Of a DNA stretch of 64,000 nucleotides, positions 6,616 to 51,839 are shown piece by piece (position 1 is the first letter of the stretch; each line of letters starts with the position of its first letter). The DNA comes from an uncultured Verrucomicrobiae bacterium (GTDB lineage: Bacteria; Verrucomicrobiota; Verrucomicrobiia; Chthoniobacterales; JAFAMB01): positions 480,001 through 544,000 of the forward strand of contig CAVXLD010000012.1 of NCBI GenBank assembly GCA_963762565.1, read 5' to 3'. The notes beneath the pieces were generated by a model. That model was not told the DNA's origin. It saw nothing but the letters and a program-made list of their open reading frames with translations, and made no database searches. Position numbers and translations under genes: made by a program.

Positions 6616-6818
6616 AAGGGTGGCCACCTATCGATTCGCGGTCCATCTTTTATCTGCGTAAATCTGCGTCCATCTGCGGTTAAGTTTTGTATTCGTGTTA
6701 ATTCGTGTCCATTCGCTGCTATGTCCGCGCCGTAGGCTTGGCGAAGGCGGGGTCCCTTTATGCGTTCTTTGTGCTCTTTCGCGGCTATTCCTGTCTTCGA
6801 CCAATCACCAATCACCAA

Positions 6819-12774: not shown

Positions 12775-13015
12775 GTGGAGCGCTGCCTCGCTGGCGAGGC
12801 CGAACGGTCGGAACAAATCTTTAATAGCCGCAAAAACCTGTCGCGCCCTAGGCTTGGCGAAGGCGGAAGGCACAAAAAGCGCAAAAAAATAAATCAGAGC
12901 GGAGCCCAGTGGAGGTGCGACCTGTCCGCCATAGCTGTGGGTCGATGTAGGCAGCGCTTTTTACCTTTCACTTTTCACCTCTCACCCGTCTTCCCTCTGC
13001 GTCCTCTGCGCGAGG
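12775..13015 (+). repeat. About 240-bp composite repeat, copy 1 (copy 2 at 18792-19080)
   Basis: Colinear, near-identical sequence including otherwise unique spacers such as GACCTGTCCGCCATAGCTGTGGGTCGATGTAGGCAGCGC. Confidence 0.9.
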
Positions 13016-13917: not shown

Positions 13918-14327
13918 ACGCTTAAACCCGCCTTTCTTCTGTTCAGCAAAAAACCTCCACAAACATCGTCTCGTGCCAGGGCTTGTCAATGATCCGCGGA
14001 GAGCCTCGCGCAGAGGGTGAAAGGTGAAATGGTGATTGGTGATTGGTGATTGGTGATTGAGGCAAACGGCATAAAGCGCAGAAAAGTCACAGACCCATCT
14101 GCGTAAATCCGCGTTGATTTCACCCCGGAGAACGTCCTTCGGCGCGACAGGCTCCGCCTCCGCCAAGCCTATGGCGCGACAGGTTTTGGCGGCTATTGGA
14201 AATTTGTTCCGACCGTCGGCCTCGTCCCGCCGCCGCGGGAAGGCAGCGCTCCACCAATCACCAATCACTAATCACTAATCACCAATCACCTCTCACCCTC
14301 CGCGCCCTTTGCGTCCTCTGCGCGAGG

Positions 14328-18777: not shown

Positions 18778-19128
18778 TGATTGTTGATTTCGTGGAGCGC
18801 TGCCTCGCTTGCGAGGCCGACGGTCGGAACAAATCTTTAATAGCCCCGCCTTCGCCAAGCCTACGGCGCGGCAAGCTGCAAAAACCTGTCGCGCCCTAGG
18901 CTTGGCGAAGGCGGAAGGCACAAAAAGCGCAAAAAAAATAAGTCAGAGCGAAGCCTTATGGAAGTGCGACCTGTCCGCCATAGCTGTGGGTCGATGTAGG
19001 CAGCGCTTTTTACCTTTCACTTTTCACTTTTCACCTCTCACCCGTCTTCCCTTTGCGTCCGTAGCGTCCTCTGCGCGAGGTTTTCTTTTGCGTTCTTTGT
19101 GCTCTTTTGCGGCTATTAAGGTTTTCCA

Positions 19129-20667: not shown

Positions 20668-22263
20668 TCACTTCTTTTGCAACAGGCTGAGTTCAACCTC
20701 TCTCGATGGTATCGGCGGAAAAAGAAAGGCAATTGCCGGGAACCGTCCCGTGGGAAAGACAAGGGCGGGGAGAGAGTAGTGATGACTCCTTAAAAGCTTG
20801 TAACCTCGACTTTCGATCTCGCCAGATGTCGTACCAAACCATTTCGGCCCAATTTTACTGTCCCAAAACACTATTGTCCCTGCCGGCCCTTTCTCTAAAA
20901 CCGAAAGTAGCTTCTCTCGATTCGTTGCCGGAGGACTATCTTTTAGGTTCCGGTTAAGATCGATACACATCCGGCCGTTGCTCCAGATTAGACCGGGCAG
21001 CGACGAATGCTGCGTTTGTAGCCAGTTCGCCATATCATCGATCGCAACTGCGTCACGCGCCCAAACCATCGAGTCCATGTAATGAACACTCTGCAGAATG
21101 GAAAAAATGATGACTACCCACCCGGCGACTGCCGCAAACGGGCGCAAGCTCTTCACTGAAAAAATTGTGTGCCAACCTTGCAGGGTTAACACAGCAATAG
21201 CCGCAGCAACCGAAACCATGTAACGCGGAAATCCTGCTTCCCCAAAAAGCCCGTACTTAACAAAAACCGAGTGTAACAAAAACAATACCAAGAAAACGGA
21301 CGTGATTAGTATCCAAGAGAGGGAACGGAATCCTCGTACCAAACCGACAATGAAGGGAACGATTAAAATGACACCCGCAAACTCTTGGCTACGCTGCGCG
21401 TAACTAAGAAACGTACCATGCCCATACATATCGGTGTGCCAAGTAGCGGGCCAATTATGCAAGATAAAGAGCGAATCACCGGTTAAGAGCAAAGCAGCCA
21501 ACCACCAGAGTACGACCCCGCTGGCGAGGATAACGATCGATCCCAACCGACGAAGTATCCCTTGGAGCGCTGCCTCGCTCTTGTCCTCCGACTTGTCCGA
21601 CGAAGCCTTGGCGAAGTCGGAAGCTTTAGCGAAGGAGGATGCGAGACCGTCGTGGCGTTCCCCGTCCGCCAAACACCGAACGCCGACTTGTCCTCCGAAG
21701 CCTTGGCGAAGGAGGAACTCCAACCGCCAAACGTCAAACGCCACCCATAAACCCCAAAGAAGACAGACAAATACTCCTTCCGGCCGGGCGAGAGGAAGAA
21801 GCGATGCAACTAACATCCCCGATTTTACCCGACCGCTAATATGACACCGAAGCGCGATCACTAGAAGTAGAGCAAACAACGGCTCGGTGAACAGACTCGA
21901 GTAAAGTTCGAAGAATGTCTGTTGACCAAGGAGCAGCGGTATTACCAGCCAAGCGCGCGACAAGTCTAGATCAGAAGCCAGCCGATAAGTCTGCCAGGCA
22001 ACGGCCACGCTGATAGCCAGAGCAAAGAATCGCGCTGGGACAAAACCGAGCGCGGCCACCGGTGCAAAAAGCGTGGTAAACAACGGACGCCCCCAGACAT
22101 CAACAAAATAAAAATGATCAACCCAGGCCGTACGAGCCATCAAGAAATGGTAATCGACATCTTGTTCCGGTGACCCTGGGAAAAGAAAAATCAACAGAAC
22201 ACCGATGACCGCCATGAATACCACGGCAATCAGCGCACGCCGCGAATCATCGACTTGTTGCAT
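20668..22263 (-). CDS. Multi-pass membrane protein, GT-C glycosyltransferase-like, with a repeat-derived in-frame insertion of about 60 aa
   Basis: WGRPLFT, FTEPLF, LARPEG and FPRY motifs with many TMs; hydrophilic insert LLRQGFGGQ...SSFAKASDFAKASSDKSEDK. Confidence 0.75.
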   Translation of the reverse strand: MQQVDDSRRALIAVVFMAVIGVLLIFLFPGSPEQDVDYHFLMARTAWVDHFYFVDVWGRPLFTTLFAPVAALGFVPARFFALAISVAVAWQTYRLASDLDLSRAWLVIPLLLGQQTFFELYSSLFTEPLFALLLVIALRCHISGRVKSGMLVASLLPLARPEGVFVCLLWGLWVAFDVWRLEFLLRQGFGGQVGVRCLADGERHDGLASSFAKASDFAKASSDKSEDKSEAALQGILRRLGSIVILASGVVLWWLAALLLTGDSLFILHNWPATWHTDMYGHGTFLSYAQRSQEFAGVILIVPFIVGLVRGFRSLSWILITSVFLVLFLLHSVFVKYGLFGEAGFPRYMVSVAAAIAVLTLQGWHTIFSVKSLRPFAAVAGWVVIIFSILQSVHYMDSMVWARDAVAIDDMANWLQTQHSSLPGLIWSNGRMCIDLNRNLKDSPPATNREKLLSVLEKGPAGTIVFWDSKIGPKWFGTTSGEIESRGYKLLRSHHYSLPALVFPTGRFPAIAFLFPPIPSREVELSLLQKK

Positions 22264-22567: not shown

Positions 22568-22900
22568 CTAACCAATCAACGCACGTAACTTGGCTCGGAC
22601 TTCGGCCAACTCAGCCGATGTTACCCGGCCTTTTGGCTGCGCCTTACCTTCGCGCCAATCGAGACTCTTCACCTGATCGGCTAGCACAACGCTGGAAGGC
22701 AAACCACCGATCTGGACCTCGAATGGATAACCCTTAATGTGGGTTGTTAGCGGACAACAGATTAGCAGACCAGCTTTCCGGTTGTACGCCGCCGGGCTAA
22801 GTACGAGCGCCGGACGATGCCCAGCCTGTTCGTAACCGGCCTGTGGCGTAAAATTCAGCCAGACGATCTCGCCGGCATCGGGCACGTATCCTCGCGCCAT
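22568..22900 (-). CDS. mazF: MazF/PemK endoribonuclease toxin
   Basis: YVPDAGEIVWLNFTPQAGYEQAGHRPALVLSP, ADQVKSLDWR. Confidence 0.95.
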   Translation of the reverse strand: MARGYVPDAGEIVWLNFTPQAGYEQAGHRPALVLSPAAYNRKAGLLICCPLTTHIKGYPFEVQIGGLPSSVVLADQVKSLDWREGKAQPKGRVTSAELAEVRAKLRALIG

Positions 22901-23142
22901 TACCAGGATTCTTCCCCTTGCGGAGACCCGGAATCGACCGCTTCATGCAAATTCTTCGGAGTTATCCGATCCACTAGCTCGTCTAGATCGTATCCCTTAG
23001 ACCGCACGGGTTTGAGAATGATCTTGCTTCCCTTTTCGGAAATATCGACGAGATCTTCGATTCGGATATCGGCAGCCTCCAAAATCGTTGCCGGAATTCG
23101 CACCGCCGCGCTATTACCCCATTTTTTTACCGTCGTTCTCAT
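22900..23142 (-). CDS. mazE: MazE/AbrB-fold antitoxin
   Basis: VKKWGNSAAVRIP, ITPKNLHE; overlaps the toxin start. Confidence 0.93.
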   Translation of the reverse strand: MRTTVKKWGNSAAVRIPATILEAADIRIEDLVDISEKGSKIILKPVRSKGYDLDELVDRITPKNLHEAVDSGSPQGEESW

Positions 23143-23145
23143 AGC

Positions 23146-23168
23146 GAGTATATACATCGTATATACTC
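23146..23168. promoter_or_regulatory. Putative mazEF autoregulatory operator
   Basis: Perfect inverted repeat GAGTATATAC-atc-GTATATACTC, 3 nt upstream of mazE. Confidence 0.7.
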
Positions 23169-27876: not shown

Positions 27877-27990
27877 GCGCTTTTTGTGCCTTCCGCCTTC
27901 GCCAAGCCTGCGGCGCGACAGGTTTTTGCGGCTATTAAAGGTTTTCCACCAATCACTAATCACCACTCACCAATCACGTTCTTCCTTTGC

Positions 27991-36251: not shown

Positions 36252-36478
36252 CACCGCTTTGCGGCTCTACTAGGCTTCGCATATCTAAGGCGGTCGGCCT
36301 CGCTACCTGTCGCGCCGTAGGCTTGGCGAAGGCGGAAGCGAGGCAGCGCTCCACAAAGGGCCTACCCCATCTGCGTAAATTTCACCCCGGAGAATTTCGG
36401 GGCTGCGTTTATCTGCGGTTGAATTTGTATTCGCGTTTATTCGTGGCCTGTCGCGCCGTAGGCCTGGCGGAGGCGGAT

Positions 36479-51041: not shown

Positions 51042-51058
51042 GACGCTCTACCTTGCGA

Positions 51059-51839
51059 CTAGATTTGCGTCCAGTCTAGCGTCTCCTTTGACGCACGGCG
51101 TAGCGCTGTCTGTTGATCTTGATCCCCTCGAAGTAGCTTCCGCATCTGGGCCACAAACTCAGTGCTACCCAATAAGACCGTGTACTTCAGACGGTCTTTC
51201 CAGTCCGTTTCCCAGTCCCCGGTTGCCGCCGCATCGCGGAGTTGGCGGCGAAAGGTCTCTTGACGCTTTCGCTGTGAGCCTTGGCCGAAGCACTCCAGAA
51301 TTGCCTGAGTACTTAGCCAATCAACCGGAGTTCTGGTTCCGGCAAAGTATCCGTAAGAACTCCATGGAAATTGCTCCAAGATCTCAACCCGCTGACGAGC
51401 CAGCTCTTTGGCGATCTCAACCTCCGAGCTTGCCCAACCTTCGTGACCGCCAGCGGCCTTAACCCGATCCGGATTGAGATGGATATAGCGGTTGATAATA
51501 ACCGCTTCGTCCGGTTCATGCAGAATCGCTTTAAAACGCCCCTGAAATAACGGACCAACCCGGCTGTACTTGCGGTTTAACCAAACGCTATAGCCAACGT
51601 TGAGCCAATGCATAGCCCGCCCTGAGGTTGGCTTCTGGCGTCTCGAGCTGCAGATGATAATGATTCGGCGTCAGCACGTAGCCATGAAGCTTGACCCCGA
51701 ACCGTCCCGGCAACGCGCTGAGTAGCTCCAAAAACCTTTCGTAACAACGCTGAGAACGGAAGATAGACCGTTTCTCGATGCCGCGGTTGAGCACGTGATA
51801 CCAGGCGCCTGGGAAATCAATCCGGGTCGGTCGAGCCAT
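51059..51839 (-). pseudogene. RAYT-like HUH (Y1) tyrosine transposase, frameshifted and probably 3'-truncated
   Basis: MARPTRIDFPGAWYHVLNRG...YVLTPNHYHL (HUH), one extra base near 51615-51622, then MHWLNVGYS...GPLFQGRFKA...RYIHLNP...PWSSY. Confidence 0.9.

Follow-up and report, generated by a model that had tools for sequence, protein, structure and literature searches.

A composite insert in a membrane protein gene

The window analysed here is a stretch of 64,000 nt from the genome of an uncultured Verrucomicrobiae bacterium, designated G000; its coordinates are those of contig C12 minus 480000. On the minus strand, an open reading frame (ORF) of 531 codons (20668..22263) encodes a polytopic membrane protein. 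Inside this gene lie three copies of a 30-nt hairpin element, named E1, E2 and E3, together with a repetitive extragenic palindromic (REP) unit and an array of heptamers. The frame stays open through the whole insert, as an earlier reading of these letters without database searches (the sequence-only reading) had reported. Relatives are designated G001, G002 and so on, and 41 genomes were searched in the comparisons.

The insert begins with the left half of the REP unit, TGGAGCGCTGCCTCGCT, which runs up to the hairpin apex (21563..21579, plus strand) and belongs to a unit that is unbroken in the G002 ortholog. The 11-mers of this left half occur 180-217 times in the genome, neighbouring words mostly 1-20 times. 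Next come a 12-nt tail part of E1 (21580..21591, minus strand; TCGGAGGACAAG on the coding strand), the full 30-nt element E2 (21592..21621, minus strand; nhmmer score of 27.3 bits) and the 18-nt head part of E1 (21622..21639, minus strand; TCCTCCTTCGCTAAAGCT on the coding strand). The two parts of E1 together make one full 30-nt element, the head being recognised by nhmmer as a partial match at C12:501639-501621, model positions 1-19. The right half of the REP unit, TGCGAGACCG (21640..21649, plus strand), completes the GCCTCGC-TT-GCGAG(G/A)C of canonical copies and of the intact G002 unit. One REP hairpin is split at its loop by 60 nt, namely by E1, itself split at position 18/19 by E2. The sequence-only reading had set the E1/E2 junction 1 nt away from our placement; a shared 2-nt 'GA' makes the two equivalent.

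A spacer (21650..21662) separates the REP unit from the heptamers. It contains GTGGCGTTCCCC, which, compared by eye with tandem REP arrays, seems to resemble the reverse complement of the REP-array linker GGGGTCGCCAC. On the coding strand, four heptamer units (GTGGCGT TTGACGT TTGGCGG TTGGAGT; 21717..21744, minus strand) lie 5' of E3 and three (TCGGCGT TCGGTGT TTGGCGG; 21663..21686, minus strand) lie 3' of it. E3 itself is a full 30-nt element of the A type (21687..21716, minus strand; nhmmer score of 33.1 bits), placed exactly on a unit boundary. With E3 removed, the autocorrelation by which both heptamer blocks were recognised is 0.67 at lag 7 and 0.69 at lag 14, a level attained in 0 of 5000 shuffles, while the remaining lags give 0.23-0.36; Tandem Repeats Finder, at score 30, reports no array here. 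The split array is real by this measure, with 4+3 units over 49 nt rather than the six units and 42 nt first counted.

On the coding strand, the element has the consensus TCCNNC-TTCGCYAARGCTTC-GNNGGA-CAAG. E1 and E3 share the stem TCCTCC/GGAGGA; the stem of E2, TCCGAC/GTCGGA, differs from it by a double change that is compensatory. Two reading frames of this DNA occur within the one ORF, giving LLRQGFGGQ from E3 and SSFAKAS..DK from E1 and E2. None of 100 shuffles of the window contains the E3 30-mer when up to 3 mismatches are allowed; by shuffles, genome word counts and controls, the pattern is more than chance. An Rfam search of 21400-21900 at E ≤ 1 gave 0 matches.

The host protein matches 0 Pfam families at E ≤ 1 and has no meaningful match in NCBIfam, and a PDB sequence search with the profile of its orthologs also gave 0 matches. 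Despite this, the label 'membrane glycosyltransferase-like' holds at the level of the fold: we confidently assign the predicted structure of this polytopic membrane protein to the GT-C glycosyltransferase fold. The AlphaFold2 model, built from full-length orthologs in 8 relatives, has a mean predicted local distance difference test score (pLDDT) of 67.6 and a predicted template modelling score of 0.73. In a Foldseek comparison with the PDB, ranks 1-33 are all GT-C enzymes (including STT3/OST, ALG12, ALG9, EmbC, ArnT, AglB, PglB, Pmt4 and AftD), five of them with E ≤ 0.001 and with TM-scores (query) of up to 0.55. Foldseek and the model agree on the multi-helix membrane core and soluble C-terminal domain of GT-C proteins. 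As a lead only, ESM Atlas neighbours include clusters with PMT_2 or PMT. The orthologs share 125 invariant residues; E33, Q34 and D35 of a PEQD motif after helix 1 are invariant in all 8 and may be a candidate for the acidic catalytic motif that GT-C enzymes carry in their first external loop.

The repeats sit in the loop between helices 163-186 and 228-261 of the model, where residues 188-226 have a pLDDT below 50. The insert probably adds new, disordered protein sequence to this inter-helix loop. Because the short loops of repeat-free orthologs are rich in Arg and Lys, the positive-inside rule places the loop probably on the cytoplasmic side.

Upstream of the loop (164 codons), the ratio of nonsynonymous to synonymous substitution rates (dN/dS) is 0.10 against G002 and 0.13 against G003; downstream of it (292 codons), the values are 0.17 and 0.155. 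In these comparisons dS is 0.6-0.8. The aligned loop codons, very few in number, give 0.31-0.47. As the downstream part is under selection in the same frame, the insert would be read through, and the gene itself is in use. That it is dead, or that the insert is untranslated and the frame was kept by accident, is hardly credible. Such an account would suit a protein outside every Pfam and NCBIfam family, yet it has to contend with a frame open over 531 codons, with dN/dS of 0.10-0.17 on either side of the insert at the dS given above, with full-length orthologs in 8 relatives and their invariant residues, and with the confident GT-C fold. The sequence-only reading had allowed for an untranslated pseudogene; with such ratios on both flanks, the gene is not one.

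Other additions are seen in the same gene. The orthologs of G002 (L002) and G003 (L003) carry an extra insert of 13-14 amino acids near alignment residue 410 (..REWETRMDANRS.. and ..GLRRDGLRMDANRS..), which has no counterpart in G000, and the G002 ortholog extends about 60 amino acids beyond the usual stop through similar repeat-derived sequence. Other repeat families have therefore entered the gene elsewhere.

The 30-nt element and its REP host

In G000, the 30-nt element was counted with a degenerate pattern and with an nhmmer profile. The pattern has 60 matches, 3 of which look spurious, against 1 for its reversed control; the profile has 143 at E ≤ 1 and 93 in a stricter set at 19 bits or more. 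Three subfamilies can be told apart. Subfamily A (30 nt) is that of E3, and its type has no stop codon in any of the six frames. Of subfamily B (30 nt), about 20 copies fill the loop of the hairpin GGCGCGCGGGGA^CAGCGCGCC. Subfamily C (31-32 nt) occupies REP loops and a T-rich repeat and also lies beside TATAGGAC-type heptamers. In our sorting of copies by context, the classes are rough regular-expression bins, and several copies binned as 'other' belong in the named classes. The element's DNA folds as a single hairpin with a 6-bp stem (-3.8 kcal/mol). Elements whose length is a multiple of a codon had been put forward as the means by which nesting makes new protein; as a design rule this fails on subfamily C and on the 49-nt heptamer array. 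Apart from the window, the element nests in itself at position 18/19 at C6:47978 (a copy itself in a REP loop), C11:86885 and C7:402783.

At C1:16669, C3:105847 and about 18 more places in G000, an E2-like element (TCCGACGTCGCC..) occupies the loop of the hairpin GGATCGCGAGGA^CAGCGATCC. These composites hold a purine-rich filling of about 29 nt at element position 18/19; the landing site is thus shared with other small sequences. Further subfamily C copies (31 nt) occur in the window at 36306-36336, in a REP loop, at 27892-27922, at 18846-18915, as an inverted pair, and at 12837-12867, 14153-14183 and 6727-6750, several of them in the T-rich repeat ..TTTGTGCCT^TTTTTGCGGC...

Taking the 93 copies of the 30-nt family and 271 REP units together, 79 of the 364 have 60 or more codons free of stops on each side. 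Pfam families were found in 17 of 18 element-bearing ORFs of 404-1976 amino acids, and in 9 of the 18 the element is located inside a domain or between two. The 30-nt element is found inside a UvrD-like helicase-nuclease, a kinase/AAA/GAF/PAS/histidine-kinase protein, Cas4-Cas1 and GltX; the REP inside a GlcD/Fe-S/CCG protein, a U32 peptidase, a double UvrA, TamB and, twice, CobN. The other 8 ORFs with a family match have the element ahead of their first domain, where it may be upstream of the true start. The UvrD-like helicase gene has the element in G000 and G002, and its G004 counterpart is exactly 30 nt shorter there. The variable loop of this helicase-nuclease in G000 (L026, C5:382553-385588, around nt 2360-2480) pairs a GGCGWTS-type heptamer run with one 30-nt element, the arrangement also seen in the gene of the window.

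The REP unit has the form ..GTGGAGCGCTGCCTCGC-TT-GCGAGGCCG... Its 15-nt core (at most 1 mismatch) has 271 copies in the 6.1-Mb genome, and the 26-mer (at most 2 mismatches) has 243, against 0 for the control. The hairpin GCCTCGC-TT-GCGAGGC is a short imperfect palindrome in hundreds of copies, as expected of a REP. No GTAG or CGTC tag, the mark of REPs in the passages of PMC3733652 that deal with them, adjoins the stem foot of these copies, which read ...CCGTGGAGCGCTGCCTCGC... Among neighbours within 500 nt, 55 pairs converge (median distance of 208 nt), 55 are direct (median of 43 nt) and 0 diverge. The organisation is that of REP doublets forming hairpins (REPIN-like), with inverted doublets and tandem arrays of 43-nt period. 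Relatives hold 187 (G003), 175 (G004), 35 (G002), 28 (G005) and 0 (G001) copies; across the genomes compared, the family is confined to the genus, with 2 copies in G010 as its sole occurrence outside. The loop is empty in 238 of the 271 units and filled in 26, mostly by subfamily C; 7 have no right half within 140 nt.

G000 has 12 Y1_Tnp matches. One of them, at C1:531665-532708, is an ORF of 348 amino acids directly followed, on one side only, by a six-unit REP array. The protein scores 53 bits with Pfam Y1_Tnp and 49 bits with the NCBIfam model NF047646 for REP-associated tyrosine transposases (RAYT), the cut-off of which is 80. Gene and array form a REPtron-like arrangement, not a proven REPtron. 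In the window, two adjoining Y1 (IS200-like) transposase fragments with a DnaA-C-like tail and one TAG between them (51056-51839, minus strand; G000:C12:531056-531839) are 50-64% identical to the intact REP-array copy on contig C1, and look like a broken copy of such a gene.

The 30-nt element reaches far beyond the genus. An A/B pattern with at most 2 mismatches is found in 15 of the 41 relatives, from 6 genera, and its reversed control gives 0 in all 41. We scanned a species-genome collection with the pattern TCCNNCTTCGCYAARGCTWYGNNGGACAAG and obtained, as a lower bound, at least 122 genome stretches from many bacterial phyla, where chance would give about 0.004 by our own arithmetic (a 48-bit pattern against about 1.2e12 positions). 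Among the matches listed are Patescibacteria/Saccharibacteria, Verrucomicrobiota, Kiritimatiellia, Planctomycetota, Acidobacteriota, Elusimicrobia, Bdellovibrionota, Chloroflexota, Armatimonadota, Bacteroidota, Spirochaetia, a cyanobacterium, Alpha-, Gamma- and Deltaproteobacteria and a cultured Bradyrhizobium. The 30-mer also occurs in 21 viral contigs.

In 81 matches there are 45 distinct 30-mers, and stem positions 4,5 and 22,23 covary in nine combinations (GC/GC, TC/GA, GA/TC, GG/CC, CC/GG, GT/AC, CA/TG, CT/AG and TG/CA). The element consists of a covarying stem of 6 bp, a conserved loop of 14 nt and a conserved GGACAAG tail. It is often central in host palindromes, including a GTAG REP (L099) and the Bradyrhizobium repeat ..GGATTGCT^TCGCT..CGCAATGAC. 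Nests at position 18/19 recur in L080, L088, L100, L122 and L123, and L074 has at least three full heads, with a fourth cut by the contig end, followed by five tails, which makes a nest of at least four levels. In the flanks of 80 copies, the three positions before the element are G in 41, C in 51 and T in 50, and the three after it are T in 46, C in 47 and G in 54. The preferred landing site of the element is GCT^TCG, which is often located at another hairpin's tip, and the target is not duplicated. The hexamer GCTTCG spans positions 16-21 of the element itself, which thus carries its own landing site in its loop and nests in its own copies.

Orthologous loops and the history of the insert

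Measured from ARPEG to the next WW, the loop is 141 nt long in G012 and G023, 153 nt in G001, G016 and G022, 198 nt in G002, 207 nt in G003 and 288 nt in G000. The net gain of G000 is 135 nt (45 amino acids) over G001, G016 and G022, and 147 nt (49 amino acids) over G012 and G023. Homologs without the insert exist as predicted, with a difference of 45-49 amino acids rather than the 60 or so expected from the letters. In G001, of the same genus, REP and element searches each gave 0 matches, and the loop is of the short kind; repeat-free homologs do not share the loop of G000, which favours insertion. The G003 ortholog has the heptamer array too, G002 has a shorter one and G001 has none.

The G003 ortholog reads TTGGAGT|TCGGCGTTCGG at the site of E3. 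It is exactly 30 nt shorter there and shows no target duplication, the boundary being ambiguous by 'TC'. We also compared the locus with soil metagenomes, using public contigs (runs X2, X5 and X6) and RNA contigs (run X18); parts of the locus without cover in X5, X6 and X18 carry no information. A 388-nt contig from another study (X6, record 25) spans 21645-21987 at about 97% identity, with 10 other differences and a gap of 30 letters, and E3 is the sole 30-nt unit within that interval. E3 is a very recent gain, located between two heptamer units and free of target duplication. Contigs of run X2, from the same study as G000, support the nested structure and break at repeats. A single X5 contig that joins 21580 to 21715 was considered as an allele and set aside as too weak to be read so. 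Run X18 gave one 230-nt RNA contig on 21323-21508 (90% likeness) and repeat-only pieces, which touch only the repeats and a relative's copy of the gene.

At the REP, the G002 ortholog has an unbroken unit (GGCCTCGCAAGCGAGGCAGCGCTCCA on the coding strand) exactly at the site where the unit of G000 holds 60 nt more. In G003 this position is taken by another hairpin, GGATCGCG-AGGA-CGCGATCC, one of a family that hosts the element elsewhere in G000. The 60-mer made of the E1 head, a full E2-type copy and the E1 tail (at most 3 mismatches) occurs once each in G000, G003, G004 and G005, and a diverged copy of the doublet occurs in G002. In G003 and G004 it lies inside a REP at the end of an unrelated gene, and in G005 it lies without any REP. 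All REP-hosted doublets have the orientation seen in the host gene, opposite to that of 12 other classified REP-loop copies in G000. Identical E2 30-mers are found in G002, G004 and G005, and in G000 this E2 subtype is confined to the host gene. In G000, the ortholog of the G003/G004 doublet locus (L025/L011) is at C7, about 571990-572060, where the REP is filled by another sequence of about 48 nt with the stem TCCGGC...GCCGGA; the contents of REP loops therefore turn over between sister genomes.

Since the same 60-mer recurs in the same unusual REP orientation at unrelated loci of sister genomes, copying as one unit is the most likely origin: the doublet was probably brought into this gene's REP ready-made, or as an already-filled REP. 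The sequence-only reading had the doll built within this gene, E1 going into the REP loop and E2 afterwards into E1. Its central observation, dispersed mini-elements nested in frame in an intact gene, is borne out; the stepwise build at this place is not. Such a serial build is improbable here. The element does nest in itself at position 18/19 at several independent places, and the G002 ortholog offers an empty REP, but the same pairing of subtypes, with the same reversed REP orientation, is met at other loci in G003, G004 and G002 and even without a REP in G005. Moreover, the E2 subtype is limited to this gene in G000, and none of the orthologs compared has E1 alone. An origin without any mobile element, in which replication slippage or template switching in a quasi-palindrome duplicated the 18-nt head and the 12-nt tail locally, would also yield the order head-head-tail-tail, and it would suit the 12-nt tails without matching heads in L011 and L012. 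We nevertheless judge it very improbable: E1 and E2 differ by a compensatory double change in both stem strands, E3 is an exact gain of 30 nt at an unrelated site with no local template, and identical 30-mers stand at unrelated loci and in other phyla.

A further question is whether the peptide was recruited for a function, for instance as a loop for regulation or interaction, and is maintained by selection instead of being just tolerated. The loop at this place is variable yet always present, and the insert is kept in near-identical samples (run X2 contigs). On the other hand, two frames of the element are read in this gene, other genes use further frames and orientations of it, E3 is polymorphic, dN/dS in the loop is 0.31-0.47 (on the very few codons noted above), and the loop is disordered in the model. 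Recruitment is thus most unlikely in our view.

We consider it likely that the locus as a whole represents a pile-up of selfish repeats in a tolerant loop of a functional GT-C-fold gene, comprising a doublet acquired as one unit, the recent E3 and a 30-nt element that targets itself. By comparison of the orthologs, a GGCGTTT-type heptamer array and a hairpin repeat settled just after the conserved WGLW in the ancestor of G000, G002 and G003, the hairpin being the genus-specific REP in G000 and G002 and a different one in G003. Then 60 nt would have been added at the REP apex in G000, through either an inserting doublet or a conversion templated by a filled REP copy; the two states differ plainly, and a gain is the direction we propose. 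Very recently, the single 30-nt E3 was added at the heptamer unit boundary. Each copy of the element would offer a new landing site through the GCT^TCG of its loop, leading to Russian dolls, and the added residues would be translated as a disordered loop. The frame would be kept because the A/B unit is 30 nt long, because the A type is stop-free in six frames and because out-of-frame events are lost from a needed gene.

Several points weigh against this account or parts of it. The 60-nt difference is unpolarised: G003 has another hairpin and G001 none, and a loss in G002 is as possible as a gain in G000. The gap in the X6 contig is known by its size and not by its exact position. Translation of the insert is deduced from selection on the downstream part. 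Nested copies supply part of the GCT^TCG signal in the flanks. Heads and tails are unequal in number in L011 (two and three) and L012 (two and four), where the extra 12-nt tails without heads imply that tail slippage also occurs. An autonomous form, with a gene between head and tail, was sought in G000 and gave chance pairs only, and no enzyme is tied to the element. Finally, a Y1 gene beside a REP array was found in 24 of the 41 relatives and not in the element-rich G015, G021 and G024 or the REP-rich G003 (61-87% complete); over all 41, this arrangement shows no clear relation to the distribution of the element.

As to the mover, our working guess, a tentative one, is a hairpin-guided cutting and joining of single-stranded DNA of the Y1/HUH type (IS200/IS605 or RAYT). 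RNA-mediated movement and repair-copying after nuclease cuts are other possible routes. It is also possible, if doubtful, that the 30-nt hairpin ranks among the smallest mobile DNA elements known, pan-bacterial and intrinsically self-nesting at a GCT^TCG that it carries itself; a loop and tail that stay the same in sequence from Patescibacteria to Bradyrhizobium would fit this proposal.

Just upstream of the host gene, two small minus-strand ORFs (22568-22900 and 22900-23157) encode 110 and 85 amino acids and overlap by one base. Read by eye, their layout resembles that of a toxin-antitoxin pair.

Significance and comparison with known systems

The host gene shows the stepwise lengthening of a protein loop by selfish hairpin DNA under ongoing selection, with natural 'before' states for each layer. 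The 30-nt element is a testable model for the movement of mini-repeats resembling REPs or small dispersed repeats (SDRs): it has a defined site and a covarying structure, leaves no duplication and nests in itself. As it is present in a cultured Bradyrhizobium, experiments are feasible. It also calls for caution in annotation: a single DNA repeat, translated, is the source of peptide motifs such as SSFAKASEDK, LLRQGFGGQ and LSSEALAKE when these turn up in odd loops or 'hypothetical proteins'. If the pan-bacterial proposal is true, the element would be moved by a very widespread host enzyme or by an unrecognised helper that travels horizontally, and it would be a steady supply of frame-neutral loop sequence for proteins.

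Y1 elements of the IS200/IS605 type insert beside a short motif without target-site duplication. The 30-nt element does likewise at GCT^TCG, but it has one hairpin in 30 nt instead of two end hairpins, and no transposase is linked to it or lies between heads and tails.

The SDRs of heterocyst-forming cyanobacteria, reportedly described by Elhai and colleagues in 2008, are said to be 21-27 nt long and confined to one subgroup (Nostocaceae). They reportedly nest in their own copies and associate with heptamer arrays and larger repeats. RNA-mediated movement has been proposed for them. The 30-nt element resembles SDRs, as these are commonly portrayed, in its length of tens of nucleotides, its hairpin with compensatory stem changes, its precise insertion at a short site, its self-nesting and its heptamer arrays. 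By the tests used for SDRs, it has a covarying hairpin, an exact 30-nt presence or absence between relatives, and nests at 18/19. It departs from that portrayal in being 30 nt long, in occurring in many phyla and in having a landing site in its own loop, and is thereby set apart by description, not by sequence. In the relevant passages of PMC4390886, SDR5 inserts precisely within the HIP1 octamer.

With REP/REPIN-RAYT systems, as the passages of Bertels and Rainey 2011 (PMC3116915) present them, G000 shares converging REP doublets, tandem arrays and a Y1 gene beside a REP array. Unlike in RAYT systems proper, the 49 bits of its Y1 protein on the RAYT model fall below the cut-off of 80.

Rickettsia palindromic elements (RPEs) are about 100-150 bp long, are known only from Rickettsia and are not known to be self-nesting. 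Like them, the elements of G000 are inserted in frame in functional genes; unlike them, the units here are 30 nt long, nested and found across phyla, and the host belongs to Verrucomicrobiota. The summary of Ogata et al. 2000 in the passages of PMC3733652 presents RPEs as in-frame palindromic inserts in functional genes, translated as an extra surface peptide.

A precedent for the gene itself is in passages of the same paper (Di Nocera, De Gregorio et al. 2013, PMC3733652), where REPs lie in frame in genes of several species, including uvrA, a ligase and helicases of the verrucomicrobium Opitutus terrae, in-gene REP clusters encode 20-82 amino acids, and some REP families are found inside other palindromes. 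G000 resembles these cases in that its double uvrA, CobN, TamB and others hold REPs. It differs in that its REP begins with GTGGAGCGC and has a stem foot without the GTAG or CGTC tag of the REPs in those passages. A 30-nt element nested in REP loops, or nesting in itself, is absent from the passages on REPs in that paper. In the literature searched, which left subscription journals uncovered, we found no description of the 30-nt family, of its cross-phylum spread or of a target that it carries itself. In-frame REPs in Verrucomicrobia genes are already published, according to those passages (Di Nocera 2013, PMC3733652). At the level of the gene, the finding is one well-documented example; of the two, the cross-phylum element holds more interest.

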